A stretch of 64,000 nucleotides of DNA from a virus. The stretch covers positions 1 through 64,000 of IMG/VR virus record IMGVR_UViG_3300047553_000733; one strand, written 5' to 3'. The position numbers and the translations under genes are program-made. The notes under the pieces were generated by a model that saw only the letters and a program-made list of their open reading frames with translations, ran no database searches and had not been told where the DNA came from. This document shows positions 1-16,789 of this stretch, piece after piece (the first letter of the stretch is position 1; each line of letters opens with the position of its first letter).

Positions 1-41
1 CTAGGGGTTGTGTGGTCTAAAAATCGTGTATAATACAGGAC

Positions 42-419
42 ATGGACAGAACAAAATTGCAACAATTCCTAACCCGACAAACCGACAGGGTTTGGGGTAG
101 GCTTTGCGAAAGTTATCCAAAATTGGTTAGATATAATCCGCCCATTATTAAACTGAATAATCGTTTGTGGCGCACTGCGGGTTATTGCCAACAGGATCAA
201 AATATTGTAGAATTGGGTTATAAATTTTTTATTGCAAACCAAAATTATTATGCTGAAATGATAGATATTATTTTACCGCATGAGATTATTCACCAAGCAG
301 ATTATAATTTATTTGGTGAAAGCGAGAAAAAATGTGGACATGGTAAAAATTGGTGTGCTATAATGGAAACCTACGGATTACCCGCTAACCCTCATCATTC
401 AATGGAGATTTTAAGATGA
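42..419 (+). CDS. SprT-like zinc metallopeptidase-domain protein
   Basis: HEIIH (HExxH) followed by HGKNW, typical of the SprT family; AGGA RBS. Confidence 0.75.
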   Translation: MDRTKLQQFLTRQTDRVWGRLCESYPKLVRYNPPIIKLNNRLWRTAGYCQQDQNIVELGYKFFIANQNYYAEMIDIILPHEIIHQADYNLFGESEKKCGHGKNWCAIMETYGLPANPHHSMEILR

Positions 420-509
420 TTTTAGATATTATTGGTTTTAGCCTTTTGGCTTTTCATTTTTCTAGCCCATTTTGGATTAGCAAATTAATGGATTATATTG
501 GTGATTAAA

Positions 510-725
510 ATGCTTAATATTATAAGTTGGTTTGGTACATTTACCAGTATATTCGGCAGTTTTTTGGTTGCCATGCAATATATTCAAATTGGATATATTG
601 CATTTATATTCGGCTCTGCCAGTTGGTTATATGTTGCATTTAAAACTAATAATCGTTCGCTTTTGGTTTTAAATACTACATTTTTTGTAGCCAATATAAT
701 CGGAATTTATAACGCTTTTAAATAA
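510..725 (+). CDS. small membrane protein
   Basis: Hydrophobic ORF with about 3 TM segments; start placed at ATG 510. Confidence 0.6.
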   Translation: MLNIISWFGTFTSIFGSFLVAMQYIQIGYIAFIFGSASWLYVAFKTNNRSLLVLNTTFFVANIIGIYNAFK

Positions 726-754
726 AAATAACCCTACTGCCGGTAGGGTTATTG

Positions 755-792
755 GCGCCAAAATTATATCATATAATTTTGGCCGGTGTCAA
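755..792 (-). promoter_or_regulatory. leftward sigma70 promoter firing into GCGC and a hairpin
   Basis: TTGACA (787-792)-18 bp-TATAAT (763-768) on minus strand; GCGC at 755-758. Confidence 0.65.
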
Positions 793-836
793 TAGGGACA
801 AACCCTAATGTTGCGAAAACATCAAAAACCCTAGTG

Positions 837-865
837 TTGACAGGGGATTGGGTTTTCCGTATAAT
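837..865 (+). promoter_or_regulatory. consensus sigma70 promoter for A2-like gene 1
   Basis: TTGACA 837-842, 17 bp spacer, TATAAT 860-865. Confidence 0.85.
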
Positions 866-911
866 CTACTCTGTTAATTCGATAAATCCTAACTGTGAAA
901 GGCGATTTAAA

Positions 912-1238
912 ATGACTGCAAAAACTGTAAACTATACTCCCGAGCAAACCCTGCAAATGGTTGCAGATTATCAAGCCGGTGTTTCCGTGGAAACTATTGC
1001 CCAAAGCATGGGCAAAACTGTTCGCTCTGTGGTTGCAAAACTCTCACGCGAAAAAGTATATCAGGCTAAAACCTATGTTTCCAAAACTGGTGAAAAGCCC
1101 GTGAAAAAAGATGTTCACGCGGACGCTATCGGTGCAATTTTGCGATTGCCCGAAAATGATATTGATTCGCTCACCAAGGCGAACAAATCTGCCCTCAAAG
1201 CGATTTTTGACGCTTTGGCAAACTCAAAACCGATTTAA
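912..1238 (+). CDS. T5 A2-like DNA-binding protein (paralogue 1)
   Basis: MTAKTVNYTPEQT...IAQSMGKTVRSVVAKLSREKVYQ...DSLTKANK resembles T5 A2; real start ATG 912. Confidence 0.75.
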   Translation: MTAKTVNYTPEQTLQMVADYQAGVSVETIAQSMGKTVRSVVAKLSREKVYQAKTYVSKTGEKPVKKDVHADAIGAILRLPENDIDSLTKANKSALKAIFDALANSKPI

Positions 1239-1245
1239 TCGGTTT

Positions 1246-1268
1246 AAATCCCCGAAAGGGGATTTTTT
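1246..1268 (+). terminator. intrinsic terminator
   Basis: AATCCCC-GAAA-GGGGATT followed by a T tract. Confidence 0.8.
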
Positions 1269-1277
1269 ATTATCCTG

Positions 1278-1455
1278 AACTGAAGTGAGTGCTCACTTCA
1301 GTTTGCGCCAAAATTATACCATAATTTTGGGGAGCGTGTCAATAGGTGTTTTCCCTGTGTTGCGCTGGCGCAACACTTTTGGTCAATTTTGCGAAGTGAG
1401 CGCTCACTTCGCGCCAGCAACGCAAATGCGAATCATTATCATTTGCATTCGCATT
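1278..1455. repeat. palindrome cluster with Fur-box-like site (injection-stop-like region)
   Basis: GAAGTGAG(T/C)GCTCACTTC palindromes at 1278-1303 and 1391-1412; GTGTTGCGC-TG-GCGCAACAC at 1357-1376; 15/19 Fur consensus match at 1422-1440. Confidence 0.6.
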
Positions 1456-1855
1456 ACGATTTGACCAACCCACCATTTGGGTGCATTAAGCGCGCTGCGC
1501 CAGTGCAAAACCTCAAGTGGAAAAACTTGAAGGTGCCGGCGCGCCCATTATACAGTGGAAAACCTTTACTTGTCAAGTGTATTTTTAGCGGCCGTGCCGA
1601 TAACCAGCAAAAATAGTCACTTGCCGCAAGTGTCAAAACTATTTATAATTTATTTATTAAATCGGAAAGGAATCCAACATGATGCAACTTGAACTTTTTC
1701 CCCTGGAATTGACACAGTGGGAGTTGGAAAAACTTAACCAATGGGTTTATGAAATTTGTTGTGAGTGCTACCTACACGACGAATTTTTTGAAGTTGAACA
1801 GGGTAGCTTTGTTGAAGTATAATATACTCTTAGACACACAGAAAGGAAATAAACT

Positions 1856-2164
1856 ATGACCGCCGAAGTCAACAAGGTTAACTACACACCTGAGCAAACG
1901 CTTGAAGTAGTTAGCAAGTACCAATCGGGTATGCCCGTGGAAATGATTGCTCGCGAAATGGGCAAAACCACTCGCAGTATCGTTGCCAAGCTCTCGCGCG
2001 AGGGCGTTTACCAAGCCAAAACCAAAGCCGCTCAACCTCGTGTTAAGAAGGCAGATCTGGTCGACAAGCTAGCACAAGCTTGCGGTGTCCCGGCTGAACA
2101 GTTTGAGTCGCTTGAAAAAGCTAACTTGGACGTACTGGAAGCACTTGCTACCAAGCTGGCGTAA
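1856..2164 (+). CDS. T5 A2-like DNA-binding protein (paralogue 2)
   Basis: Clear paralogue of 912-1238; own promoter TTGAAC-18-TATAAT at 1794-1823. Confidence 0.75.
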   Translation: MTAEVNKVNYTPEQTLEVVSKYQSGMPVEMIAREMGKTTRSIVAKLSREGVYQAKTKAAQPRVKKADLVDKLAQACGVPAEQFESLEKANLDVLEALATKLA

Positions 2165-2196
2165 GCTAGCGCGGTTTAGGGTCAAAAAATTCTGAC

Positions 2197-2225
2197 TTGA
2201 ATTGAGACCCTAAATCCTATATAAT
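2197..2225 (+). promoter_or_regulatory. sigma70 promoter for ncRNA-1
   Basis: TTGAAT-17-TATAAT; GACCCTAAA motif in the spacer and an inverted copy upstream. Confidence 0.75.
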
Positions 2226-2232
2226 AGATATA

Positions 2233-2409
2233 TCGCAGTCGGGAAAGATAAACAAAATTAACCAGACCCATTACACCGCAAATCAGTCACTGTTAGTCGA
2301 CACACCTGTAATGCTCATGGTCTCTTTAATCCCAGTAGTCTGTTTGTTATAGCCACTACTTCAACCTAATAAAATCTTAGTAGTCCAGTGCTATTAACAA
2401 CGATTGCGA
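2233..2409 (+). ncRNA. candidate structured RNA, about 177 nt (ncRNA-1)
   Basis: Begins at predicted TSS; 5' TCGCAGTCG pairs with 3' CGATTGCGA; internal arms AGACC/CATTACA..TGTAATG/GGTCT and ATAGC/ACTACT..AGTAGT/GCTAT; no ORF. Confidence 0.6.
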
Positions 2410-2419
2410 AATTTTTTAC

Positions 2420-2449
2420 TTGAACTATAAAGCTGTTTTGTTATATAAT
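2420..2449 (+). promoter_or_regulatory. sigma70 promoter for ncRNA-2
   Basis: TTGAAC-18-TATAAT. Confidence 0.75.
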
Positions 2450-2630
2450 ATATTTATAGTTTGATGAAGGGTGTAAGCGGTCACCGAGCAAATCACGGTG
2501 ATACTACTTAATTGTTGGGAAGCTAATCGCCGAGCAACAGCCCGTTACAGTTTATGGGTGTTATGAGCCTGGCGTATTTGTCCAGATAACAACTTGATTG
2601 GTGGCGAAGCCTCTACCACCAGCCCCCTAA

Positions 2631-2732
2631 ACCCTCTGATGAGTGCCCTGCAATGGGCCGAAACTCTAAGCATCGTGTCTAGTTGCTGACAGACTTCAAA
2701 ACTGCCACCTAGATGCACCTTAGGGTCAGGGT
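2631..2732 (+). ncRNA. type I hammerhead ribozyme
   Basis: Stem I ACCCT/AGGGT; CTGATGA core; stem II G(T)GCCC/GGGCC; GAAA; stem III CTCTAAG/CTTAGGG; GUC cleavage triplet at 2725-2727. Confidence 0.85.
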
Positions 2733-3117
2733 ATGAACCCAGCACATTGGCCTGTGGCCGCTGGTAATAGTAATACCCAACCGCTTTAACACGGTCGGCG
2801 GGATACAAGTGGATTGTACTCCGGAGAAAGAACTCCTTAAAATACAGCCATCTTCTAACACAAGAGCCTCGGCAGAGGTAATGCAAGTCTGGAGTCTTGC
2901 TGGCGCTAGGTATGGTGTGAACATACCACAACGACCCTAAACTGCGGAGGGTGCGTATAATATATCCAGTCAGAGACAACTGCACTAAACCGCTAGCAAA
3001 TGCGACAACCTATGTTACCGCACGGATATCGCAAGCACTGGAACTGTAGCGACTGAAACGTGCGCGGCTCGCGAGCCACAAAAACACGCTGTTTAGCTAA
3101 ATCACTGTGACGTGTTC

Positions 3118-3153
3118 AAAAGCCCCTACTACCGGCAGGTAGTAGGGGCTTTT
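3118..3153 (+). terminator. intrinsic terminator (bidirectional shape)
   Basis: AAAAGCCCCTACTACC-GGCA-GGTAGTAGGGGCTTTT. Confidence 0.9.
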
Positions 3154-3267
3154 GTTTTGGTTTTTACAATTTAGGGTCCAAAATTTTAGCGCTGCTGCGC
3201 CAATTATACAGTGCTAAACCTTGTTTGTCAAGTGGATTTTCTTGAAACTGACCCTAAACCGCAAAAA

Positions 3268-3301
3268 ATAAAGCCTACTTAGCAAAACTAAGTAGGCTTT
3301 T
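3268..3301 (-). terminator. intrinsic terminator of the leftward unit
   Basis: AAAGCCTACTTAG-CAAAA-CTAAGTAGGCTTT just after the 3318 stop. Confidence 0.8.
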
Positions 3302-3317
3302 GGCGTTATTGGGTGAG

Positions 3318-3635
3318 TTAAGTGCAATTGCCTTGGTTTAGGGTCAGTTTTCGTTCCAACAAAACCAGCACCCCTTTGTTTACCTTCTCCAAGCTCTCCA
3401 GTTGGTCGCTGGGGACGTCCAGAAGCTCAGCAAGGCGTTCGATATGCTCCGATTTTTTCACTGGCAGCTCACCACGCTTGTTGAGGTACTGTTTTTTCTG
3501 GTACACGCCCAGACTGCTCAGCTTAGCAATTATGCTACGTTCAGGTACTTCCAGCTCAACTGCAAGCTGCGTTACTGGTATACCGCCTTTATAGTCCTTG
3601 ATCAATTTATCTGTTACTTCTTTTGTGTATTTCAT
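3318..3635 (-). CDS. T5 A2-like DNA-binding protein (paralogue 3)
   Basis: MKYTKEVT...LAVELEVPERSIIAKLSSLGVYQKK...LESLEKVNK aligns with the other two paralogues. Confidence 0.7.
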   Translation of the reverse strand: MKYTKEVTDKLIKDYKGGIPVTQLAVELEVPERSIIAKLSSLGVYQKKQYLNKRGELPVKKSEHIERLAELLDVPSDQLESLEKVNKGVLVLLERKLTLNQGNCT

Positions 3636-4411
3636 AGCCATGGCATTGCAAATGTATCTTGTTTAGGTTGTGTTTGTTCAGGTACTGTAAAAATCTCACT
3701 AGTAACTAGTGGTTCGGGCATCAAATCCCAGTTAATGGGATCTAAGATCATGTATTTAGTGCGCTTGCTGGGGTGTGCTATCCAGATTTGAGTAAGCATC
3801 GACTGTGTTAACTTGGGGAGTGTGCCTAGCTTGGTATGCTGAATGCCTGTTAGTGCCCAAGTACTTTCGGCAGGCTTCAATTCACCTGCCTTCTTGCCCG
3901 ATTTATTCATCAAGCCTTCACTTCTGATTGCCAGCAACTCCTCTGACCCTAAATCGCCAACAACTTGCAGTTGCTCCGCACTCAAGTTCACTGCCTCCAA
4001 GAGTTTAGGTTCTAGTAAGTACTCCAAGTGTTTTAGACCCTGCCAGCTCCCATAAGGTACGTCTTTGTAGAGCTTAAACCCCATTAGTATAAGTGGGGTA
4101 AACTGTGCGTACTGGGGGTGTTGTGTTTGGCTGGGCAGTAGTAATGACCTGGTAACCCTGCTGAGCTTCCACAACCCCTGCAGTTTAGGGTCCTGGCCAA
4201 CGTTGTGCTTGAGCGTGGCTAAAATATCCCAACGATCGCCAGAGTCTTTGACCAGCTTCCAGGTGCCAAAGTGTGCAACCAGCTGTGGCAGCAACCATTG
4301 GTGAAGTGGGGCAATATGCTCCTGTTTGATCCATTGCTCCAGCTCTACTTGACTCATGCTATTTATTGTGCTTAGTGGCAGTTCAAATATGTCTTGCTTT
4401 TTTAATATCAT
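3632..4411 (-). CDS. hypothetical protein (about 259 aa), coupled to A2 paralogue 3
   Basis: Long ORF; stop overlaps next start (ATGA); leftward promoter at about 4612-4642. Confidence 0.75.
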   Translation of the reverse strand: MILKKQDIFELPLSTINSMSQVELEQWIKQEHIAPLHQWLLPQLVAHFGTWKLVKDSGDRWDILATLKHNVGQDPKLQGLWKLSRVTRSLLLPSQTQHPQYAQFTPLILMGFKLYKDVPYGSWQGLKHLEYLLEPKLLEAVNLSAEQLQVVGDLGSEELLAIRSEGLMNKSGKKAGELKPAESTWALTGIQHTKLGTLPKLTQSMLTQIWIAHPSKRTKYMILDPINWDLMPEPLVTSEIFTVPEQTQPKQDTFAMPWL

Positions 4412-4457
4412 TTTTAAATTTAGTGGTTTGATTTTAGACGCAATTATCCTACTTATT

Positions 4458-4585
4458 AGTTGCACTTAGCCTTTGGTCTTTGACCCTAAACTTACAAAAA
4501 TTGCTGTAATTAAGGGGCCCTCGTGTATCGTCCCTTATTACTAGCATTTTGTGTTGTTTAGGTCAACAACCACGGCTGTGCAACT
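4458..4585 (-). other. about 128-nt rod-like imperfect hairpin in the 5' leader
   Basis: Nested pairings AGTTGCAC/GTGCAACT, AGCC/GGCT, TTGACC(C)TAAAC/GTTTAGGTCAA, ACAAAA/TTTTGT, TAAGGG/CCCTTA. Confidence 0.65.
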
Positions 4586-4716
4586 TGTATCTGTCTCTGT
4601 AATTTATACAATATTATAGCACACTAGGCAAATACTCTGCAAGCTAATTTTTTATGTGGAGGTTGTTACTGATTTTATTGGTTAGTGGGTACGAAAAAAG
4701 CCGCTTGTGCGGCTTT

Positions 4717-5361
4717 TTAATCCCAGAGTGCCTGGTAGTACTTGCCAAACAGTTTAAATCCTTGTTGCTTTCTGTGTTCCCAGTGGTTGTGAGCCTCACT
4801 ATCATGCTTGATCTGGTAGATTTGCTGGTTTAGCTCTGCTTTAGGGTCAACCTCACTGTGGTCATAGAACTGGTCTTGACTGTCCGCGTTTTGGTGCTGT
4901 TCAAAAGCCCAGATCATTTCGTCGATAACATACTCCCAGCGTTGGTGCCAGAACTCGTCTGTATCCCACTCATTCTCCTTAGGCTTTGCGTGTGTACTCC
5001 ACAGGTGTTGTGGACAGTCAAAGTCGTCTACCTTAGGGCTGCCGTGCTTGGTAGCTTTCAGTTGACGGAGCATTGGCAGGATAATGATGCTCAGGGTATG
5101 ATCCATTGACCAGGTGTCGTACTTGTCAATACGCACATACTCTTGGCGCTTACGCTTCTTATCCAACCAGTTTAGGAACTTGGTAAGCTTGCTATCACTG
5201 CCGTCCTTGTTCTCTGCTAGCCAAGTGCCGAAGTTGTGCACCCAGTCTTTGTGTCTGGGAAAGCCCACTTCGTCCTTGACTTTTGGACTCCAAAAACACA
5301 GTAGTTCAGCAATTTGATAAGGCCCCCACCAAGTTTTGTAGGGTCCAATGATAACTTTCAT
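4717..5361 (-). CDS. phage hypothetical protein
   Basis: 214 aa ORF with DTWSMD and GFKLFGKYYQALWD motifs, in a tight operon. Confidence 0.8.
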   Translation of the reverse strand: MKVIIGPYKTWWGPYQIAELLCFWSPKVKDEVGFPRHKDWVHNFGTWLAENKDGSDSKLTKFLNWLDKKRKRQEYVRIDKYDTWSMDHTLSIIILPMLRQLKATKHGSPKVDDFDCPQHLWSTHAKPKENEWDTDEFWHQRWEYVIDEMIWAFEQHQNADSQDQFYDHSEVDPKAELNQQIYQIKHDSEAHNHWEHRKQQGFKLFGKYYQALWD

Positions 5362-5543
5362 GGTAGTGGTCCTGTTATGGGTTCTTGTTCATCACCTTCT
5401 AGTGGTGGGGGAAATGGCCAAGGTGTTGGTGGATATGGCCAGGTCGCTGGCGGAGTGTGCTCGTCCAGTTCCTTGGCTAGTTGGTTTACCCTGTGAAACC
5501 ATTCTTCAATGGTTTTAATTGGTGTGGAATTCTCTGTCGACAT
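5358..5543 (-). CDS. hypothetical Pro-rich protein
   Basis: Overlapping operon ORF. Confidence 0.55.
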   Translation of the reverse strand: MSTENSTPIKTIEEWFHRVNQLAKELDEHTPPATWPYPPTPWPFPPPLEGDEQEPITGPLP

Positions 5544-5727
5544 AGTATTGAATAAGCTCTCGTTGGATTTGTGTTAGCAGGTCGCCGTAGTCTTGGTCGA
5601 CAACGAATCTGACTGGGCAAGTGCCCCAGGTTCTGGTTTTATTAAACTCTGCAAACCAGCGGCGGTGATCTTCGTTGTGTGGATCAAATACTGCCCAAGG
5701 CCTGCCGTATAGCTGTAGTCTACTCAT
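5515..5727 (-). CDS. hypothetical protein
   Basis: Overlapping operon ORF. Confidence 0.7.
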   Translation of the reverse strand: MSRLQLYGRPWAVFDPHNEDHRRWFAEFNKTRTWGTCPVRFVVDQDYGDLLTQIQRELIQYYVDREFHTN

Positions 5728-5902
5728 CGTTATTATCCTTTAGTGCTTGTTCATATCCTGCTTTAAATGCCTGACGCATCCACCAATCGCGACATTCGTG
5801 CTTTTGCAGATCAGCGTGGTCACGCATCCAGCCGTTGCGGTTGTGATTAGGCTCTGCGTATACTTCGTGGTAAAACCACTCAATAAACTTTTTATCAATC
5901 AT
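5720..5902 (-). CDS. hypothetical protein
   Basis: Start MIDKKF with GAGGT RBS. Confidence 0.6.
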   Translation of the reverse strand: MIDKKFIEWFYHEVYAEPNHNRNGWMRDHADLQKHECRDWWMRQAFKAGYEQALKDNNDE

Positions 5903-6287
5903 GATCACCTCTATGTTCGCTACACAGTGTACGAATCCAGCCGCCACGGGTCTGTGTACCAGGCTTACCACACTGCTCACACAGTTTAGCACTAAAGCCC
6001 TCAGCAAACCAAATCATGTTACGAATATTTTCGTCCCCGCCTTCGCCGTAAAATCTCAGTGTACCAAACTTCTCCTTAACCTGTACCGCAACAAACTGTG
6101 TGGTGCCAGGCTTGGCATTTTTATCTAGGTGCCACTGAATCTCACTGCACAGGTGGTCAATCAAGTCATACCAGCCATCACCACACTCAAAGCCCCAGCA
6201 CATTGCTGTTTTATCTGGGCTGGCATAGCGATTAGCAAAGATTTTAGGATACTTGTTGACAAGCTGTTCGTCTAGTGTTTTATTCAT
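5895..6287 (-). CDS. phage hypothetical protein with C-terminal CxxC
   Basis: GFECGDGW, QVKEKFGTLRFY, CEQCGKPG motifs. Confidence 0.8.
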   Translation of the reverse strand: MNKTLDEQLVNKYPKIFANRYASPDKTAMCWGFECGDGWYDLIDHLCSEIQWHLDKNAKPGTTQFVAVQVKEKFGTLRFYGEGGDENIRNMIWFAEGFSAKLCEQCGKPGTQTRGGWIRTLCSEHRGDHD

Positions 6288-6493
6288 TAATAGGCTCCGG
6301 TGTGGTTATCTAGTGCGCGGTAGAAGTCTTGCTCAAACTGGTCAAACACCTTAAGCTGATCTTGTTCAGTACCATGCTTGCGTGCATTACGCATTGCGTT
6401 TAGGTAGTCCTGCATCAAGTGGTGCAGTTGAGTGGCGTTACTCAGCATACGCACCTCATCCCAGTCTTCACATTGTACAGTAATACTTATCAT
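6287..6493 (-). CDS. hypothetical protein
   Basis: Start MISITV with GGAG RBS. Confidence 0.6.
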   Translation of the reverse strand: MISITVQCEDWDEVRMLSNATQLHHLMQDYLNAMRNARKHGTEQDQLKVFDQFEQDFYRALDNHTGAY

Positions 6494-6494
6494 G

Positions 6495-6707
6495 TTAAAC
6501 TCCAAAATAACGTTGATTGCCGCCCTTGCTGTTAATACCAACAAGGTCTTGGCGATTGAATACTGGAATGTAGTTTGACTTATGCATAGGCACAATGGTA
6601 TGCTTGTGCTCACGAGCTTGCTTGTCGCCACAAGGCAAGCAGGTATGATAACCTAGTTGCCAACGCTGTGGCATAACATCGTCACTACAATGAACACAAT
6701 AAAACAT
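6495..6707 (-). CDS. small zinc-finger protein
   Basis: CVHC...CLPCG; own leftward promoter at about 6737-6765. Confidence 0.7.
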   Translation of the reverse strand: MFYCVHCSDDVMPQRWQLGYHTCLPCGDKQAREHKHTIVPMHKSNYIPVFNRQDLVGINSKGGNQRYFGV

Positions 6708-6766
6708 AGTTAACCCTTTAGTAATTTATAAATAATATTATACACTGTGGCAACTCAAAAGTCAAG

Positions 6767-7129
6767 TCAGCGGTTCTTCATGGCTTTTTGCAGTTGCTCA
6801 ACCAAACCTAAGATTGTTCGCTGATACCAGTTAACTGCTTGCTGTTGACCAGGCAACCAATCAGGACGGAGCGCTAGTGCAAGTTCGTCGTTGTTGGTCA
6901 TAAGAATTGTCTTTAGTGTATCGTCTTCCCAGCGTAGCTTTCTACAGTAGATATCAATTACCTCTGGCATTGCAGGGATTTCCTGATTCATTGCTTCAGC
7001 AATGCTTTTCAGTGTTGGTGCAACTGCAATCCTAATAGTGCCTTGCTTTTCTAGCTGCTCCAACAACCACAGCGGAATATCTAACACAGTGATTGGCTCA
7101 AAATCTTTGGTATATAGTACAACTCTCAT
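6767..7129 (-). CDS. hypothetical protein
   Basis: 120 aa operon ORF. Confidence 0.7.
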   Translation of the reverse strand: MRVVLYTKDFEPITVLDIPLWLLEQLEKQGTIRIAVAPTLKSIAEAMNQEIPAMPEVIDIYCRKLRWEDDTLKTILMTNNDELALALRPDWLPGQQQAVNWYQRTILGLVEQLQKAMKNR

Positions 7130-7443
7130 AGTTTAGACGCCTTAAGTGTCCAGCTGCCATCGCCGTTGTCCAGCCATTCAATAACTGTGCCTTCTTGCCA
7201 GCCTTGGGCTTTTAGGAACTCTTCTGGAAAGGTAATGTGTGGCTCTTCGTCTGTACCCTCAACCTGTAGCACATAGCTATGTTGCATCCGTGCTGCATAG
7301 AACGCAGCCTCCAACCACTTACGCAAATTTGTAAATCTATCTATGCTGTGGTGTATGTCATAGTCGTCATAGCAGCGCTCTGCACGAGTAGCATAGTTTT
7401 CAATCTCGTGAAACCAGGACTCAAAGGTTGGGTAGTTATTCAC
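7126..7443 (-). CDS. hypothetical protein with AbrB/MazE-like C-terminal domain
   Basis: ITFPEEFLKAQGWQEGTVIEW pattern; GTG start overlapping thyX stop. Confidence 0.55.
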   Translation of the reverse strand: MNNYPTFESWFHEIENYATRAERCYDDYDIHHSIDRFTNLRKWLEAAFYAARMQHSYVLQVEGTDEEPHITFPEEFLKAQGWQEGTVIEWLDNGDGSWTLKASKL

Positions 7444-8104
7444 TGGTAAGCTCCTGCATAAGTGGAAAGATTTTGCTGATAATGGTAGCACATTCTTTAG
7501 CTACCAGCTGGTGCTCAAGTTGTGTGCCATTAGCACTACGCAATTCAATAAAGTGTACCCACGATCTCAGTGTACCATTCATGTAGAGTCGCGACTCCAT
7601 AAGACCCTCAGGCAACACGGCTCTGGCCTGTTCCTTAGCAATGCCATTTTTAACGGCCCAGTCATAGGCTTCACCAGCCTCACGAATCACACGTTTTTGG
7701 CGCTCTTGCCAAAATGTTTGTAATTGCAGATTGTCTGTGTGCACACTATTTTGGCGATTCTTTGGGTCTTGCATCCTAGCTTCCCGCAGCACAAAGTTTA
7801 GATCTTGTGTTGGATCAGCATAGCGTTGCGAAAACTCCTGAAAGCTAAAGCTTCGGTGTCGCAAGATTTGGCGTGCAATATCGCGAGTGGTAGTAATCTC
7901 TAAACAAGCACTGACCATCTCCAGCGGAGACCAGTGTTTGTGTTTAACCAAGTACTTGATTAGCTTTTCACTAGTTTCAGTATTTAGTTGGTTGCTGGGA
8001 TTGCTAACACGAGCACAGAAAGCAATTAGGTCTTGTGCGTCCTGCAACCCCTGCTCAATAAATTCAGCACTTGGCTGACTATAGCTAATAAGTTTAACTT
8101 GCAT
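7436..8104 (-). CDS. thyX: flavin-dependent thymidylate synthase
   Basis: HWSPLE and RQILRHRSFSFQEFSQRY (RHRx7S signature). Confidence 0.95.
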   Translation of the reverse strand: MQVKLISYSQPSAEFIEQGLQDAQDLIAFCARVSNPSNQLNTETSEKLIKYLVKHKHWSPLEMVSACLEITTTRDIARQILRHRSFSFQEFSQRYADPTQDLNFVLREARMQDPKNRQNSVHTDNLQLQTFWQERQKRVIREAGEAYDWAVKNGIAKEQARAVLPEGLMESRLYMNGTLRSWVHFIELRSANGTQLEHQLVAKECATIISKIFPLMQELTSE

Positions 8105-9066: not shown

Positions 9067-9543
9067 TTAATGGTAGAACACGTGATTGCCGATCACTTTG
9101 TGGTTAATCTTTGTTTGACCATGTTCTATAGTTTTATTGTGAAAGTATGTAAAGTTAAAGTTCTTGATAAATAACTTTCCAGTAAACACACCAAAAGCAA
9201 TCTCTTTGGCTTCTTGCCAAGCCTTTTTGTCTACTATCTTTGTATCCATAGTAGTCCAACTAAACTGTGGTATACCTTTTACTTGTTGATAAACAACATC
9301 GCAAACTGTACTAGGCCACTTAGTTTTATGATTTGCTCGGTTCATTGTTACCTGTGCAACAGCAATTTTTCCTAGTTGTGATTCCCCACGAGCTTCGTGG
9401 TATATATTCTTAGTTAAGCAATAAAGTTCTTTTAAAGTTTCTTGTGAGTATTCTTTTATTGGTTCTGTAGATTTTGCAAAATGTATAGGAAAACTTAATG
9501 CCGTTGCTACTAGTGCTATGCGCAGTGTTAGTAGCACGCTCAT
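9067..9543 (-). CDS. SleB/CwlJ-like cell wall hydrolase (Hydrolase_2)
   Basis: CLTKNIYHEARGES, AVAQVTMNR, QFSW, IGNHVFY; signal-peptide-like N-terminus. Confidence 0.9.
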   Translation of the reverse strand: MSVLLTLRIALVATALSFPIHFAKSTEPIKEYSQETLKELYCLTKNIYHEARGESQLGKIAVAQVTMNRANHKTKWPSTVCDVVYQQVKGIPQFSWTTMDTKIVDKKAWQEAKEIAFGVFTGKLFIKNFNFTYFHNKTIEHGQTKINHKVIGNHVFYH

Positions 9544-9699
9544 TTCTACGCTCCTTAAAACAAAGTTGATAAGTCTCAATTATATAGCACTGGGTAAAAA
9601 ATTTCAAGTCGGAGTTTAACTGGGTCGGCGCCAAACACAAAAAATTGTGGCTTGAAAATTATTTGCCGCGGTGTTATAATAGTTGGACAGGAGCAACAA

Positions 9700-9897
9700 A
9701 TGTCTGAATCTAACGAATACACGCAACAACTGGAAAATTTAATTACCAGGACTTTATTACCAGTATATGAACAGTATTGTAAACAAAATGGACTCAATAT
9801 ATACGAATCTGGAATACCAGTAAACTTGTTATATTCGCTAAAGTTAAGATCTAAACCTGTAGCAGCATTGTTGCGAGAAAAAAATTCGGGGTGTTAA
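9700..9897 (+). CDS. hypothetical protein
   Basis: AGGAG RBS and upstream promoter. Confidence 0.6.
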   Translation: MSESNEYTQQLENLITRTLLPVYEQYCKQNGLNIYESGIPVNLLYSLKLRSKPVAALLREKNSGC

Positions 9898-9902
9898 GCT
9901 TT

Positions 9903-10146
9903 TGACCCTGAACCGCAGTAGTTGCAAGAAACAACTCAAATTGCTTTAAAATTCTGCATCGAAGCCAAGGCCAGCAAGCTGCGGCGGGACAGCTAGAATG
10001 AATGTAGCGTAATTCCCATTGCTGTGGGGTGCTACCGACCCTACCTAAGGGTAGGGTCACTCAAGCTAATCAATAGTGGTTGGCTTGATTGACCCTAAAC
10101 CGCGGTGCCCTATGGGGCCGCACTAGTTTGCCTAAAAGGAAACGCA
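9903..10146 (+). promoter_or_regulatory. structured 5' leader of hsp20 (possible thermometer/ncRNA)
   Basis: Series of hairpins; last (GTTT-GCCT-AAA-AGGA-AAC) covers the RBS; two motif copies. Confidence 0.45.
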
Positions 10147-10560
10147 ATGACAAAATTTGGATTACAAGAGTTAAATCGCAATCTTATTGGATTTGACAGA
10201 CTATTTCAGCAAGCAGAAGCTAAACTACAAAACATTACAAGCTATCCACCACATAACGTGATTAAACTGGACGAGCATGGTGACAAGTATGTTGTAGAAT
10301 TTGCAGTAGCTGGATTTCAAAAACAAGATGTACAACTAGAAGTAGTTGATCAAACACTGGTAGTGCGCGGACAACGCGAACAAGAGTCGTTTGGTACTTA
10401 TGTATATCATGGCTTAGCAAAGCGCAGCTTTGTAAAGCAAATCGCACTTAGTGAATATGTAGAAGTTACTGGTGCAAAACTAGAACACGGTATTCTTGCG
10501 GTTCACCTAGAACGCAAAGTCCCAGAGGCTATGAAGCCCAAACAGATTGAGATTAGTTAA
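10147..10560 (+). CDS. small heat shock protein (Hsp20/IbpA-like)
   Basis: IGFDRLF, YPPHNV, AVAGF, HGLAKRSF, GAKLEHGIL. Confidence 0.95.
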   Translation: MTKFGLQELNRNLIGFDRLFQQAEAKLQNITSYPPHNVIKLDEHGDKYVVEFAVAGFQKQDVQLEVVDQTLVVRGQREQESFGTYVYHGLAKRSFVKQIALSEYVEVTGAKLEHGILAVHLERKVPEAMKPKQIEIS

Positions 10561-11683: not shown

Positions 11684-12115
11684 ATGAACATGGCAACACC
11701 ATTCTTGAAAGGCACAAAAAATGCACAAATATTTAGCACAACAGCACCCTATGATAACTTTTATCAAGGTTTGGATCATCGTTGGCTTTTTGTGTGCAGT
11801 GCTGGCCTCCTGCGAAGCCCAACCGGTGCCAGGGTTGCTACCATAAAAGGTATAAATGCTCGTAGTTGCGGCAGTGCTGTGGGCTGGGCGCTGATTCCTA
11901 TTTCGGCAAACTTGATTAACTGGGCACAAAAGATTATTTTTGTGTGCAGTGATAACTACGACCAAGCACTAGACCTATTCAAAGATGTTGGTGACCTACA
12001 CTATCAGTTAGTGACTAAAAGTGTTGTACTGGACATTCCTGATATGTTTGAGTATATGGAACCACAACTAGTAGAGATATTCAATCAGCAATTGTTCAAT
12101 GCTGGCTCAAACTGA
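11684..12115 (+). CDS. LMW protein-tyrosine-phosphatase-like protein
   Basis: LFVCSAGLLRSPT (C-x5-RS), INWAQKIIFV, LDIPD. Confidence 0.85.
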   Translation: MNMATPFLKGTKNAQIFSTTAPYDNFYQGLDHRWLFVCSAGLLRSPTGARVATIKGINARSCGSAVGWALIPISANLINWAQKIIFVCSDNYDQALDLFKDVGDLHYQLVTKSVVLDIPDMFEYMEPQLVEIFNQQLFNAGSN

Positions 12116-12188
12116 CTGTAGCTCAGAAGGATAGAGCAATAACCTTCTAAGTTATTGGTCGGGGGTTCGAATCCCTCCAGTCAGGCCA
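12112..12188 (+). tRNA. tRNA-Arg(UCU)
   Basis: Cloverleaf, loop CTTCTAA, encoded CCA. Confidence 0.95.
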
Positions 12189-12254
12189 GAAATTATTTTG
12201 TTGATTTACTCATCTTTATATTATATAATATAGTCTGTTCTGTGGAGAAATAAC

Positions 12255-12452
12255 ATGGCTGCTTATACAAAAGAATTTTTAGTTGCTGCTTACATGAGCA
12301 GATTTATCAAGTGTAGTTTGATTACTATTGAACAGCTTGAAAGTCTTGAACTGCAAGCCAACACATTCTATGATAAAGTTGGCCGTGATAAGTTTCGCAC
12401 ATACGCTAGCTTAGATGCCGAAGCTATCAGACTATACAAGGCTGAGCTATGA
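12255..12452 (+). CDS. hypothetical protein
   Basis: GGAG RBS, upstream promoter. Confidence 0.65.
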   Translation: MAAYTKEFLVAAYMSRFIKCSLITIEQLESLELQANTFYDKVGRDKFRTYASLDAEAIRLYKAEL

Positions 12453-12637
12453 TAGTTGAAAGTGTTGGACGCCTGTGGCGTTGGGTAAGAGATAGGCAAG
12501 TTGTAGAAGTACAACGACAAATGCTTGATCCTAAAACTCACAAAACCTGGTACGAATACCATACGCTAATCTATAATGCTCAAGCCAAAGTAGTAGAATC
12601 TGAAGCAGTCGGCACAAAGTTTGATAAAACAGTTTAA
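12449..12637 (+). CDS. hypothetical protein
   Basis: ATGA overlap with previous ORF. Confidence 0.6.
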   Translation: MIVESVGRLWRWVRDRQVVEVQRQMLDPKTHKTWYEYHTLIYNAQAKVVESEAVGTKFDKTV

Positions 12638-12653
12638 ATTAAGTCCCGTCCCA

Positions 12654-12822
12654 CTTGTTGCCACAGTCCCTAGTGGTTAGCAGTGCACCGCGACGCTATA
12701 TGACCGCCTGGCACATATAGGTAAAACATACGAGTGATGGTGGACTGCGTATGCGGATATTTTAGACCTGCGGGCCGTCGCCCAATAGTAGCAAGACAAT
12801 ATAGCACAGTTTAGGGACTGTG
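12654..12822 (+). ncRNA. candidate pseudoknotted structured RNA
   Basis: CTTGTTGC/GTAGCAAG and GCGACG/CGTCGC stems; CACAGTCCCTA can pair with distal TAGGGACTGTG. Confidence 0.5.
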
Positions 12823-12823
12823 C

Positions 12824-12903
12824 CTATATTTTAGCACAGCACTTCACTGATAAGGAAGACTGGTCGGCTGTATTCAACTGGCTAGTGCTGTGCTAAAATA
12901 TAG
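12824..12903 (+). ncRNA. stem-closed small RNA with Ile(GAU) anticodon-like loop
   Basis: Perfect 20-bp inverted repeat enclosing CTTCA-CTGATAA-GGAAG. Confidence 0.55.
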
Positions 12904-12904
12904 T

Positions 12905-12980
12905 GTCCCGTTCATCTAGTGGCCAAGGATAGTGCCCTTTCACGGCATTCACGCGAGTTCGAATCTCGCACGGGACGCCA
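12905..12980 (+). tRNA. tRNA-Glu(UUC)
   Basis: Cloverleaf, loop CTTTCAC, CCA. Confidence 0.95.
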
Positions 12981-12989
12981 CAATTTCAA

Positions 12990-13073
12990 GCCCCGGTGGT
13001 GTAATGGTAGCCACGCTGGTCTTAGAAGCCAGTGCCGAAAGGCGTGCGAGTTCGAGTCTCGCCTGGGGCACCA
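12990..13073 (+). tRNA. tRNA-Leu(UAG)
   Basis: Type II cloverleaf, loop CTTAGAA, CCA. Confidence 0.95.
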
Positions 13074-13248
13074 GTTAATTTTTATGGGTCAATGCAAAAG
13101 ACTTCCACACCCTAACTGCTAAGGGAGAAAATTGCCTTATTACGCTAGCTTGGAATGCTAGGTAGCTTGGTGTAGCGTATAATGCACTTGTAAGGTAGGC
13201 CGCCCACGATTGCCTTTAAAATGACAGCAGTACCCATAAAAATTAACT
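13073..13248 (+). ncRNA. stem-closed structured RNA, about 176 nt
   Basis: Perfect 17-bp terminal inverted repeat, internal helices, potential pseudoknot ACTGCT/AGCAGT. Confidence 0.55.
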
Positions 13249-13274
13249 TGACACACAATACTATTTAGTATATA

Positions 13275-13499
13275 ATGACAGTACAAGAACTAATAAACAA
13301 ACTACAACAATTTGACCCTACCCTGCCCGTCGTGCTTAGTGGCTACGAGGGCGGGGTATACTTGCCTGAGCACGTCAACATTGTGCTTATGGCAGAAAAT
13401 GTCAATGACGCCTGGTATTACGGACCACACGAAATTGTGTGGCCTGATATCAATGAATTCACAGACTACAAAAAATTTCACGGAGTTTATATAAAATGA
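13275..13499 (+). CDS. hypothetical protein
   Basis: MTVQELINKLQQFDP start. Confidence 0.7.
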   Translation: MTVQELINKLQQFDPTLPVVLSGYEGGVYLPEHVNIVLMAENVNDAWYYGPHEIVWPDINEFTDYKKFHGVYIK

Positions 13500-13813
13500 A
13501 TACCTATACCCCAGATCGTTGGGTTGTGTTGCGTATTACTTACGGCAGTGAAACTATTGATAAAGTGCTAGCTGGTTGGTACGGCGGATTCGCTGGTAGC
13601 GATCACTGGAAACTTAACAGTGGTATCCTTCACACCGAGGAGTTTGATAACCGCTTTGAGTTTTACGGCTACAGTGGTAGTGTTTATGTGTGTTATAAAG
13701 CAGCACACGGATTTACTAGCTTAACTCGTAGTATGCTAGCTAGTTGGCAAAACAAAGAAAATATAGATATTAAAATACTAGAAGAAAAATACAATGTTCG
13801 ATCAACAAATTAA
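13496..13813 (+). CDS. phage hypothetical protein
   Basis: YTPDRWVV, WYGGFAGSDHWKLNSGI, GYSGSVYVC. Confidence 0.8.
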   Translation: MNTYTPDRWVVLRITYGSETIDKVLAGWYGGFAGSDHWKLNSGILHTEEFDNRFEFYGYSGSVYVCYKAAHGFTSLTRSMLASWQNKENIDIKILEEKYNVRSTN

Positions 13814-14792
13814 ACGGATCGGCTTTGCGTGTAAAATTCAAAGTGAACACGACAAAGCAGACCCTAAACTGAATACAAAAACAACTACACTAACTTGGTT
13901 AAATAACCAAACACGCGACAAAGCTGTTGAGAAACTGTGGATGGTGATGGAGCACAATGCTCAAGCACTAAAGCAACAACTCAACTGGGTAGGGAAACAG
14001 CCCAAGGGTCAGCGTATGTTTCGACTTAGCAGTGACCTGTGTCCTGCATATACTCACGACGACTGGACATGGTGGTACTTTGAACCAGATGTTCAGCGAT
14101 ACATGGAAAAACACTACGGCGAGATTGGTGAACTCATCCGTACACACGATATCAAGGCCAGCTTTCACCCAGGCCAATTTTGCGTACTAGCATCGGAGCA
14201 TGATGGAATTGTTGATAACAGCGTGGCTGAGTTTGAGTATCATTGCGACCTCATCCGCTACATGGGTTTTGGTAAGTCATTTCAAGACTTTAAGTGCAAT
14301 GTTCACATCGGCGGTAAGCGCGGACCTGACGGAATTAAAGCTGCTCTAAAAAAGCTGAGTCGCGAAGCACGAAACACTATCACCATTGAAAATGCTGAGT
14401 ACACATGGGGTCTTGACGCTAGCCTAGAGCTTGCACAAGACTGTGCACTGGTGCTTGACATACATCACCACTGGATTAATACCGGAGAATATATAAGTGC
14501 AGACAATCCTAAACTTCAACCCATTTGGGATAGCTGGCGCGGAGTTAGGCCTACCATTCACTACTCTGTCAGCCGTGAAGATTGCTTGGTCGACCACGAC
14601 CCAACAACAAAACCCGATCTGGCAGAACTCAAGCGTATGGGCTTTACCAGTGCAAAACTTCGCGCACACAGCGACTACTACTGGAACTCAGAAGTAAATA
14701 AATGGGCCTTGACTTTCTTAGACAAAGCTGATATAATGTGTGAATCAAAACAAAAGAACTTGGCAAGCAGCGAGCTTGCCAAGCTTTTGTAA
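13794..14792 (+). CDS. uvsE: UV damage endonuclease (UvsE/UVDE)
   Basis: RIGFACK, FRLSSD, HPGQF, TIEN, LVLDIHHH, AHSDY, DIMCESKQK. Confidence 0.9.
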   Translation: MFDQQIKRIGFACKIQSEHDKADPKLNTKTTTLTWLNNQTRDKAVEKLWMVMEHNAQALKQQLNWVGKQPKGQRMFRLSSDLCPAYTHDDWTWWYFEPDVQRYMEKHYGEIGELIRTHDIKASFHPGQFCVLASEHDGIVDNSVAEFEYHCDLIRYMGFGKSFQDFKCNVHIGGKRGPDGIKAALKKLSREARNTITIENAEYTWGLDASLELAQDCALVLDIHHHWINTGEYISADNPKLQPIWDSWRGVRPTIHYSVSREDCLVDHDPTTKPDLAELKRMGFTSAKLRAHSDYYWNSEVNKWALTFLDKADIMCESKQKNLASSELAKLL

Positions 14793-14800
14793 TTAAATTT

Positions 14801-14879
14801 CGGGGTGTAGGCTAGCCTGGTTTAAGTCGCTGCGTTTGGGACGCAGAGATCGTGAGTTCGAATCCCACCACCCCGACCA
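14801..14879 (+). tRNA. tRNA-Pro(UGG)
   Basis: Cloverleaf, loop TTTGGGA, CCA. Confidence 0.95.
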
Positions 14880-15060
14880 TTTAGTTTGTGTGTTGCTAGA
14901 ACACCGATTCGGTTCGGGGCTTTGCAATCCTGAGACCACAGACACCTAGGAAGGTTTGTGGGTATGGTTTGACCCTAAGCATAGGCCAGTGTCGCGAACT
15001 GGGTAAACTTAGGGCACTGGCTTAGCGGCTAGGGTAGTAAAGAGCGCACAAACTAAATGG
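14877..15060 (+). ncRNA. stem-closed multibranch RNA between tRNA-Pro and tRNA-Ala
   Basis: CCATTTAGTTTGTG/CACAAACTAAATGG terminal stem; at least 4 internal hairpins. Confidence 0.55.
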
Positions 15061-15130
15061 GGGATTAGTGCTAATGGGAACACGCGTGCTTTGCAAGCAT
15101 GAGTTGGGAGTTCGATCCTCCCATCCTCCA
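15059..15130 (+). tRNA. tRNA-Ala(UGC)
   Basis: Loop TTTGCAA, G3:U70 pair; CCA not encoded exactly. Confidence 0.9.
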
Positions 15131-15147
15131 CCCACTAGGAGCACAAT

Positions 15148-15366
15148 ATGTGGCGTAATTCATTGGGTCAGTATACATTGAATGCTGTATTTGTACCTGC
15201 TTGGTATAATACAAAACGAGAAAAATTTAAACCAATAGAATATAAAAGGATTGATTGTGAAATTACAGAAACCGAAACAACGAAACCCATTTGTGGCACT
15301 GGCCATGAAGCGGAAAGCGGGATCACACCGAAAGACAAACAAACAACTACGCAAGCAACTGAATAA
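15148..15366 (+). CDS. hypothetical protein
   Basis: AGGAG RBS. Confidence 0.45.
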   Translation: MWRNSLGQYTLNAVFVPAWYNTKREKFKPIEYKRIDCEITETETTKPICGTGHEAESGITPKDKQTTTQATE

Positions 15367-15412
15367 GCTTACACAGGAGTCTTCTATAAGTGTATAATGT
15401 ACATTTATAGAA

Positions 15413-15513
15413 GGCCCCGTAGCTTAATTGGTTAAAGAACCGAGCTTATACCTCGGCATAGCGCTGTCTAGATAAGGCAGAGTGTGGGGGTTCGAGTCCC
15501 TCCGGGGCTACCA
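15413..15513 (+). tRNA. atypical tRNA with UAU anticodon (Ile) and 29-nt variable arm
   Basis: Acceptor GGCCCCG/CGGGGCT, CCGAG-CTTATAC-CTCGG, T arm GGGGG-TTCGAGT-CCCTC, ACCA end. Confidence 0.8.
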
Positions 15514-15518
15514 TAATA

Positions 15519-15610
15519 GGAAGTGTGGCCGAGTGGCCGAAGGCAGCGGCTTGCTAAGCCGTCAGTCGCAGAAATGCGGCTCGTGGGTTCGAATCCCACC
15601 GCTTCCACCA
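15519..15610 (+). tRNA. tRNA-Ser(GCU)
   Basis: Type II cloverleaf, loop TTGCTAA, CCA. Confidence 0.95.
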
Positions 15611-15626
15611 ATAACAAGGATTGAGT

Positions 15627-16310: not shown

Positions 16311-16334
16311 TACACACAACACATAGGAAATATT

Positions 16335-16785: not shown

Positions 16786-16789
16786 ATTG

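Follow-up and report, generated by a model that had tools for sequence, protein, structure and literature searches.

The window analysed here, a 64-kb stretch of DNA, is the start of the 102-kb genome of an uncultured T5-like phage, whose DNA polymerase is 49% identical to that of Demerecviridae. Small genes for helix-turn-helix (HTH) proteins and a gene for a 259-aa protein, orf259, lie on either side of a gene-free kilobase that encodes a structured RNA, and copies of a short motif recur throughout. The features are listed by position in the window and by strand.

912-1238, plus strand: A2-like-1, a bipartite HTH protein of 108 aa (phrog_1725, E 1.8e-5)
1856-2164, plus strand: A2-like-2, a bipartite HTH protein of 102 aa (phrog_1725, E 8.9e-9)
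2171-2225, plus strand: promoter P1, a promoter-like site at 2197-2225 with its -35 box at 2197 and its -10 box ending at 2225
2232-2415, plus strand: ncRNA-1 or a leader, with a closing helix CAGTCG/CGAYTG and then a U run
2420-2449, plus strand: promoter P2 of the large RNA (10/12), with TTTACTTGA...TATAAT invariant in relatives
2469-2625, plus strand: closed, multi-helix 5' domain of the large RNA (ncRNA-2), in which GGGU at 2469-2472 pairs with GCCC at 2622-2625
2631-2732, plus strand: hammerhead ribozyme with an open stem I and a predicted cut between C2727 and A2728
2728-3116, plus strand: 3' domain of ncRNA-2, with conserved blocks and hairpins, including a reverse-motif hairpin at 2933-2953
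3117-3154, plus strand: intrinsic terminator of ncRNA-2, a two-way 17-bp stem conserved in relatives
3231-3203, minus strand: leftward promoter of perfect consensus between the terminators, part of a unit at 3170-3262
3270-3300, minus strand: terminator of the leftward operon, enclosed by a 16-bp perfect inverted repeat of the motif (3245-3260 / 3335-3350)
3318-3641, minus strand: A2-like-3, an HTH protein of 107 aa (phrog_1725, E 6e-4)
3632-4411, minus strand: orf259, 259 aa from an ATG at 4411, overlapping the start of A2-like-3 by 10 nt
4412-4642, minus strand: promoter and rod-hairpin leader of orf259, with an extended -10 box TGTGCTATAAT around 4612-4622
4840-4848, plus strand: outermost copy of the motif in the cluster, within the phrog_11543 gene

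The original prediction had described two convergent units that contain A2 paralogues, two non-coding RNAs and orf259. A2-like-2, A2-like-3 and orf259 lie at the positions that it claimed, and the units do meet at facing terminators, at 3117-3154 on the plus strand and 3300-3270 on the minus strand. The promoter at 3231-3203 was absent from that description; it is flanked by motif copies upstream (3249-3262) and downstream (3170-3178), and the unit of motif and promoter recurs two to three times in relatives without the hammerhead.

Related loci were retrieved in two ways, 32 via protein and 38 via a pattern search for the hammerhead, and all 38 independent pattern matches fall within the synteny block from SprT to orf259. 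A lack of linkage in relatives had been set beforehand as the result that would speak against an integrated system; what was found is that orf259, A2-like-3, the hammerhead RNA, A2-like-2 and the motif cluster occur together in about 45 IMG/VR contigs in a constant order (SprT, A2-like-1, A2-like-2, the non-coding RNA, then A2-like-3 and orf259). All the parts exist where they were first placed, and they are inherited together. A2-like-1, whose orthologues are 75-89% identical, and A2-like-3 are present in every relative, and the orthologues of A2-like-3 (57-83% identical) adjoin orf259 in 32 of 32 loci. The hammerhead is present in 24 of 24 loci with A2-like-2, counting L114, in which A2-like-2 lies beyond the contig end, and is missing from 7 of 7 loci without A2-like-2. 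Neither DNA searches for near and distant matches nor tblastn of orf259 and A2-like-2 found near relatives among GenBank phages, and the module is best read as part of a conserved early region in a clade of uncultured T5-like phages.

The hammerhead is housed in a non-coding RNA of about 700 nt. No conserved ORF was found in the gene-free kilobase among 22 relatives, and a 146-aa minus-strand ORF across the ribozyme (2545-2985) was rejected as a gene on the ground that it is unconserved. The 5' domain of the RNA is supported by 31 pairs, which are 96.5% paired across the alignment with 17 compensatory, a result matched by none of 500 shuffles; in the 3' domain, 12 of 23 pairs are compensatory. 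The sequence of ncRNA-1 is conserved, but its structure is weakly supported, with only 3 of 16 pairs compensatory, and the copy in the window has no GGGC...GCCC arm. A tRNA-Glu is nested inside the large RNA in L098 and L102.

The ribozyme and its cleavage site at 2719-2729 stand as first claimed and are supported by covariation. The core reads ACCCU-CUGAUGA-stem II-GAAAC-stem III...CUUAGGGUC^AGGGU, and the three-way junction was found unaided by RNAalifold. Across 38 distinct sequences, the helices are 85.7% paired and 12 of 19 pairs are compensatory, which is matched by 0 of 500 shuffles; when the pairing partners are slid, only 18-42% are paired. Stem I is short, at 3-5 bp, and is 74% paired. 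The catalytic core (CUGAnGA / GAAA / GUC) is nearly invariant in relatives. In the 38 aligned hammerheads, the defining nucleotides C3 U4 G5 A6 N7 G8 A9, G12 A13 A14 and the A15.1-U16.1 pair are invariant, with N7 being U or C and H17 being C rather than G; in L109, a relative outside the 38, N7 is A (CUGAAGA). The Rfam hammerhead models have no match in positions 1200-4800 of the window at E up to 10, or in 7 relatives at E up to 1, and Rfam searches return tRNAs only. The Rfam miss reflects the coverage of the models, not the defining chemistry. Loop II (UGMAAKU) and an ACGAAA 3' of stem I are conserved, but a mutual-information scan gave no covarying pair between them, and no tertiary contact between stem I and stem II, either loop-loop or pseudoknot, was recognised. 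The fold and its covariation predict cleavage after C2727. A link to RNA end healing via a weak PNK-like PHROG match, at 100380-100853 of the genome contig (G000), was rejected given that it has no Pfam support; no RtcB or RNA ligase was found in the genome.

The ribozyme resembles the type I hammerheads of bacteria and phages (RF00163 clan; Perreault et al. 2011, PMC3088659) in its CUGAnGA ... GAAA core, A15.1-U16.1 pair and GUC triplet, in the three helices that meet at the core, with stems II and III capped and stem I open, and in its place in an intergenic phage transcript. It differs from them in that it has no Rfam score, its stem I is of only 3-5 bp, and it makes no recognisable loop-loop or pseudoknot contact. 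Also, its stem III forms a conserved hairpin capped by about 48 nt, its substrate strand is frozen as the repeated DNA word of the module, and it is embedded mid-way in a large structured RNA instead of lying between genes. As an RNA of several hundred nucleotides with multiple domains and covariation, the transcript is like GOLLD and ROOL, a likeness of kind and not of homology. GOLLD and ROOL are phage-borne and linked to tRNAs. Their Rfam covariance models have no match here, and the present RNA is set apart by its predicted self-cleaving ribozyme and by its T5-like phage host.

The motif TTAGGGTC, which has the 16-bp duplex form GCGGTTTAGGGTCAGT, occurs 22 times in the window where 1.3 copies are expected, a count reached in none of 100 shuffles. 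Of the 22, 11 lie within 2176-4848, on strictly alternating strands and at the places that had been listed; they include copies upstream of P1 (2171-2184) and inverted in its spacer (2206-2214), in orf259 (3945-3953 and 4184-4192), in its leader (4482-4490) and in the last codons of A2-like-3 (3335-3350). The cleavage site had been described as a near copy of the motif, and the substrate strand of the ribozyme is indeed the same word, with stem III formed by the motif and its near-complement. The modules of nearly all relatives carry 6-12 copies, whereas 0-1 are found at each of about 75 loci from other phages with the neighbouring gene phrog_11543. The copy within phrog_11543 itself is not at the same codon in homologues.

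Could the motif be just a word common to the genomes of the clade, such as a site for nicking, packaging or a host factor, that is dense here by chance, with the RNA, the HTH genes and orf259 being mere neighbours? Copies do occur genome-wide with a strand bias (10 of the 11 beyond the cluster are on one strand), strand-specific nicks exist in T5-like phages, and close relatives can inherit synteny without functional coupling. This explanation is nevertheless very unlikely, given that more than half of all copies are packed into 2.7 kb of a 102-kb genome, that their positions are kept copy by copy in relatives with 40-58% protein identity, that presence or absence of A2-like-2 tracks that of the hammerhead RNA, and that the T5 nick word (GCGC) is unrelated to the motif.

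The conservation is letter for letter. In 21 of 21 orthologues of orf259, Leu-Gly-Ser is always coded TTA GGG TCN, such that the motif is kept at synonymous positions. The leader of orf259 folds, as predicted, into a rod hairpin (-57.3 kcal/mol, z -5.8) that is kept in relatives; within it, the strand with the motif is invariant and the pairing partner is variable. This comparison of leaders used single-sequence folds, as the leaders have diverged too far for MAFFT/RNAalifold to yield a consensus. The synonymous freezing and the invariant strand count for a motif that may be read as sequence. Upstream of -35 boxes, and in the same orientation only, the motif lies at two sharply defined distances from the box, 12-13 nt in 19 cases and 17-21 nt in 33; about five-sixths of the copies have no promoter at fixed spacing. 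Units of motif and promoter are retained in relatives without the RNA. The two spacing classes make it plausible, at the level of sequence, that the motif is tied to transcription control.

The motif may instead act in RNA, where UUUAGGGUC and its complement would form short duplexes in the transcripts of the module, to be read by orf259, an HTH paralogue or an RNase, and mRNA fate would in this way be coupled to the ncRNA. Both forms of the word are present in the ncRNA, for which base pairing in trans with the mRNAs is also conceivable. The motif in RNA is nearly always duplexed, and therefore an RNA-level role has to be weighed: the strict alternation of strands in the cluster would suit it, as would a 9-bp hairpin at 2175-2214 formed by the P1 motif pair, the 16-bp perfect repeat around the leftward terminator, hammerhead stem III, and the leader rod, in which the motif is base-paired in nearly all relatives. 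The orf259 mRNA also contains a 21-nt near copy (I1) of the reverse-motif hairpin of ncRNA-2, and GACCCUAAA lies within an enlarged stem II in L109 and L120. The P1 motif pair, however, shows no compensatory change in L097 and L119, and in the leader the motif is invariant but the strand that it pairs with is degenerate. The copy at 3249-3262 is upstream of a promoter, at a fixed distance from its -35 box and in the gap between the terminators, and is therefore probably not in an abundant RNA. Cleavage of other motif copies in trans by the ribozyme was rejected, as the AGG required for stem I pairing is missing from those copies and trans-cleavage is therefore unlikely. On balance, a role for the motif in RNA rather than DNA is judged unlikely.

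If the motif is a DNA site, the neighbouring HTH proteins are candidates to bind it. They had been called A2 paralogues, and the family matches bear this out: three are listed above, and a fourth paralogue matches phrog_1725 at E 2.2e-5. The name is loose in that these matches span only positions 38-125 of the profile, for which T5 A2 itself scores 4e-52, and that BLASTP against T5 A2 gives no alignment or E 0.066. The best phrog_1725 member in the genome is a full-length D3 orthologue (23556-23930), syntenic with T5 D3 in the replication block. The AF2 model of A2-like-2 consists of two three-helix units (pLDDT 82); the protein has a weak match to the GcrA DNA-binding domain, and the weak fold matches of the model are all to DNA-binding HTH domains (IstA, Pax, Tc3), all with E above 0.1. 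By sequence and model, the proteins are probably small, bipartite HTH proteins remotely like GcrA, A2 and D3. They share with T5 A2 and D3 and with GcrA a small size, a helical make-up and an N-terminal HTH, as reflected in the phrog_1725 matches and in weak Pfam and PDB matches to the N-terminal domain of GcrA, and, as a further likeness, the A2-like genes are in a presumed first-expressed block. Unlike T5 A2, they are of about 100 aa rather than 135 aa and number four paralogues. They also have no A1 partner: in agreement with the original prediction, no A1-like gene was found in the genome at E up to 10, and the T5 control was positive.

Structure prediction and a Foldseek search had been proposed for orf259, and give a confident model (AF2 pLDDT 89, from an alignment of 25 sequences) with no known fold. 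The protein has no Pfam, PHROG, PDB or fold match, with nothing above Z 3.5 in VIA-align and nothing in the PDB by Foldseek. Searches of BFVD return only uncharacterised phage proteins, and those of the ESM Atlas only uninformative fungal clusters. A diverged A1 was considered and rejected (hhalign probability 0.1%).

The preferred explanation, to which we give about an even chance, is an early regulatory module that joins a self-cleaving RNA to an HTH-operator regulon. Host sigma-70 RNA polymerase would start at P1 and P2 and transcribe the gene-free kilobase in the rightward direction. The RNA of about 700 nt would fold during synthesis, and the built-in hammerhead would cut it after C2727. 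The 5' product, of about 270 nt, would comprise the closed multi-helix domain and the ribozyme and carry a 2',3'-cyclic phosphate end, and the 3' product, of about 430 nt, would begin with a 5'-OH and end at the terminator; these two RNAs would be the functional products. A word of 14-16 bp, (T)GC(G/A)GTTTAGGGTCA(G), would serve as the operator for at least one of the neighbouring bipartite HTH proteins, at about -50 to -65 of the module promoters and at conserved places inside the module genes. Through this operator, the RNA genes and protein genes would be regulated together as one unit, presumably early in infection. The one-strand bias of the copies outside the cluster is not explained by a plain operator.

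Another possibility is that the gene-free kilobase and motif cluster correspond to the injection stop signal (iss) of T5, or mark the inner boundary of the DNA that is injected first; in phages without A1, A2-like proteins bound to the repeated word would then halt DNA entry and later let it resume. By analogy, the map positions appear alike: after the terminase there is a rightward block of small genes (from 98.6 kb of G000 to the contig end, joining the contig start), followed by 1.15 kb of untranslated DNA between convergent units and then by leftward early genes and a tRNA array. The T5 iss, 1.0-1.2 kb at 9140-10149, likewise lies between convergent units; it is a stretch of about 1.2 kb, untranslated, at the inner edge of a small-gene block and rich in repeats and inverted repeats (Davison 2020, bioRxiv 10.1101/866236). 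T5 A2 binds DNA and is required for the second transfer step, and the absence of A1 would fit as well. Yet there is no sequence similarity to T5, the repeat word is another one, and the small proteins are remote from A2. DnaA boxes are lacking, with no TTWTNCACA in positions 1-8100 and 6 in the whole window versus 11.8 expected. The region encodes covarying RNA structures, which are not known for the T5 iss, and no hammerhead was found in the T5 pre-early region. No terminal repeat is visible in the contig. The ribozyme lies at both contig ends of one relative, which was considered as evidence of a terminal repeat and set aside, as an overlap of only about 1 kb is uninformative on a T5-type repeat. 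A counterpart of the iss is rated distinctly unlikely. A broader proposal, that in T5-like phages without A1 the hammerhead-processed RNA, orf259 and A2-like proteins on the repeated word control staged DNA entry or early host take-over, doing the job of T5 A1/A2 and the iss, is highly improbable.

Hammerheads are common in phages, and to our knowledge a job is known for almost none of them. Here, one lies mid-way in a large, strongly covarying RNA that is listed in no database, where the genes presumed to be expressed first border on the early genes, in a widespread environmental clade of T5-like phages. The substrate strand of this ribozyme is a conserved DNA motif that marks the promoters of the module and is frozen in its protein genes, and the module could tie a natural ribozyme to a regulatory circuit. 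It also bears on whether the T5 A2/D3 family consists of regulators that act close to promoters and recognise specific sequences. Should the module prove to have a part in staged DNA entry, it would speak to a question that T5 biology has faced for sixty years.

The module of small helix-turn-helix (HTH) genes, orf259, structured RNA and clustered motif was found with all the elements that the original prediction had named, each in its predicted place. The promoter-like and terminator features come from consensus scans.

1856-2164, plus strand: A2-like-2, a small HTH protein
2197-2225, rightward: promoter-like element P1
2420-2449, rightward: promoter-like element P2
3117-3154, plus strand: terminator facing the leftward one
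3300-3270, minus strand: terminator facing the rightward one
3318-3641, minus strand: A2-like-3, a small HTH protein
3632-4411, minus strand: orf259, a 259-aa protein, overlapping the start of A2-like-3 by 10 nt

The proposed linkage of these parts is borne out when related loci are retrieved either through a protein or through the ribozyme. A profile search of IMG/VR with orf259 gave 32 loci, all with A2-like-3 directly downstream and nearly all with A2-like-1 and SprT past a gene-free stretch. A DNA pattern for the ribozyme, a retrieval route independent of any protein, gave 38 stretches, and wherever the flanks are readable the order is identical. All 24 loci that have A2-like-2 carry the ribozyme RNA; the seven without A2-like-2 all lack it and carry in its place a different small ORF and repeated motif-plus-promoter units.

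The hammerhead is real, as judged by its conserved core and covariation in relatives. In the window it reads ACCCU-CUGAUGA-G(U)GCCC-UGCAAU-GGGCC-GAAAC-UCUAAG, followed by a capped extension of ~48 nt and then CUUAGGGUC^AGGGU, with cleavage predicted from the sequence between C2727 and A2728. The topology is type I: stems II and III have caps, and stem I, which is short (3-5 pairs), is open. An Rfam search of the window and seven relatives returned no hammerhead match. The pattern is kept in five syntenic relatives with differing helix sequences, RNAalifold recovered the three-way junction without guidance, and a covariance model built from five sequences located the element in every related locus having A2-like-2. 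In an alignment of 38 distinct sequences, 85.7% of cells are paired, a share that drops to 18-42% on sliding the 3' partners; compensatory changes mark 12 of 19 pairs, a covariation reached by none of 500 shuffles, and neither the catalytic nucleotides nor the GUC triplet varies. The same alignment yielded no covarying candidate for a tertiary contact. The core of one related locus, L109, is CUGAAGA, and in L109 and another, L120, stem II is enlarged by 40-90 nt, with an insert bearing a copy of the reverse motif, GACCCTAAA.

The ribozyme belongs to a known class; the large RNA family around it is undescribed. In 22 relatives no reading frame is conserved across the 1.1-1.6 kb separating A2-like-2 from A2-like-3, so a 146-aa minus-strand frame in the window is regarded as spurious. 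Of the two non-coding RNAs originally proposed, ncRNA-2 stands, with a covarying 5' domain. This closed multi-helix domain (2469-2625) fills the stretch from P2 to the ribozyme; its 31 pairs are 96.5% paired, 17 with compensatory changes, a support matched by 0 of 500 shuffles. The RNA 3' of the cut site has conserved blocks, several covarying hairpins and a conserved terminator at its end. For ncRNA-1 (P1 to P2), sequence and a closing helix are conserved; support for a structure is weak, one arm is missing from the window copy, and this stretch may be no separate RNA but a leader. In two relatives the large RNA has genuine tRNA genes nested within it, at differing positions, either immediately 5' of the ribozyme or within the 5' domain, and the non-coding region of L109 holds a small ORF and an insert resembling a tRNA.

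L098:1562-1634, minus strand: tRNA-Glu(UUC)
L102:2747-2818, minus strand: tRNA-Glu(UUC)

Sequence conservation shows that selection acts on the repeated motif as a word. The window has 22 copies of TTAGGGTC versus 1.3 expected, and the 11 copies within 2176-4848 alternate in strand with no exception; the complete word is ~14-16 bp, (T)GC(G/A)GTTTAGGGTCA(G). Nearly every relative's module has 6-12 copies at corresponding places, and ~75 loci of other phages that share the neighbour gene phrog_11543 have 0-1. In orf259, whose orthologues are just 40-58% identical, a conserved Leu-Gly-Ser is written TTA GGG TCN in 21 of 21 orthologues, almost always after a T-ending codon. In relatives the orf259 leader folds as a rod hairpin; its motif strand never varies, and the partner strand is degenerate and variable between phages, indicating that the word is kept by a sequence-specific reader and not for base pairing. 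Beyond the cluster (10091-53192), 10 of 11 TTAGGGTC copies are on the minus strand, whatever the gene orientation.

The main rival explanation is that the word acts at the RNA level, given that the motif, once transcribed, almost always falls within a duplex: hammerhead stem III, the rod of the orf259 leader, a 9-bp hairpin (2175-2214) and a 16-bp perfect inverted repeat around the leftward terminator. A 21-nt stretch of the orf259 mRNA also nearly repeats the reverse-motif hairpin in the ncRNA-2 3' domain (2933-2953 / 4172-4192, an 86% inverted repeat). However, pairing in the P1 hairpin lacks compensatory upkeep in two relatives. Trans-cleavage of the other motif copies by the ribozyme is unlikely, since those copies lack the AGG required for stem I.

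A role as DNA operator is favoured, because of a fixed spacing to the -35 element and a copy in the gap between the terminators. Distances to strong sigma-70-type -35 elements of the same strand form two sharp groups, 12-13 nt (19 cases) and 17-21 nt (33 cases), with no such peak for copies in the opposite orientation. This spacing places the motif at about -50 to -65, as holds for P1 and for a perfect-consensus leftward promoter:

3231-3203, minus strand: promoter with its motif copy in the inter-terminator gap

Situated there, that copy is probably outside any abundant transcript. Four perfect (12/12) sigma-70 promoters, all on the minus strand within a rightward gene block (763-792, 1313-1342, 1547-1576 and 3203-3231), each lie within a conserved repeat that contains GCGCC (families D1, D3 and D4) and face a two-way terminator 40-80 nt off; as read from this layout, they could be a source of tiny antisense RNAs or polymerase sinks.

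The three small HTH proteins and a fourth (98646-99014 of the whole record, G000) form a single family of ~100 residues. Their description as A2 paralogues holds at the profile level, with matches to phrog_1725 at E 9e-9 to 6e-4, a family whose strongest member is T5 A2; it does not extend to direct similarity, as BLASTP against T5 A2 gave nothing useful. The second T5 member is D3, and the genome's best member is a full-length D3 orthologue (E 7e-27), syntenic with the D2 helicase, split NAD ligase, D5 and D6:

23556-23930, plus strand: T5 D3 orthologue

The paralogues also give weak but recurrent matches to the GcrA DNA-binding domain. An AlphaFold model shows two three-helix units and a linker; its fold matches, though weak, are without exception to HTH domains that bind DNA, and several of these domains are bipartite. 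Such a modelled fold would suit an asymmetric site of 14-16 bp. In the preferred reading, the module would combine a self-cleaving early RNA with a regulon that A2/D3/GcrA-like HTH proteins control through the operator, a mechanism whose chances, taken whole, are about even. The orf259 model is confident (pLDDT 89), and structure prediction with fold searching, like searches of Pfam, PHROG and PDB sequences, gave no match; nor is orf259 similar to A1. The reported lack of a recognisable A1, the T5 partner of A2, extends to the whole genome at E up to 10, in a search that recovers both T5 A1 copies.

The record is 102,184 bp long (completeness estimate 96%), with the window as its first 64 kb. 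Its DNA polymerase shares 49% identity with T5-like phage polymerases, and the D3 orthologue and the genes syntenic with it form a T5-type replication block. After the terminase and portal genes come small rightward genes, a block cut off by the contig end. The spacing from the fourth A2-like gene through SprT to A2-like-1 is identical in relatives, and thus the contig end joins its start.

12112-21520, plus strand: array of 18 tRNA genes, as in T5-like phages
94-98 kb, minus strand: terminase and portal genes
G000:C1:98646-101820 (= L130:4647-7821): end block continuing into the contig start, with the fourth A2-like paralogue and a second SprT-like gene

The end block also gives a weak polynucleotide-kinase-like PHROG match, without Pfam support; neither RtcB nor an RNA ligase was found in the genome.

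The injection stop signal of T5 is an untranslated 1.0-1.2 kb that separates convergent units where the pre-early block has its inner edge, and the module lies at the equivalent map place. The two have no sequence in common; the T5 signal is marked by DnaA boxes, whereas the module has none and encodes a structured RNA, and no hammerhead of its type was found in T5. By this analogy, offered as a lead only, the module could be the counterpart of the T5 injection stop signal and may have a role in DNA entry.
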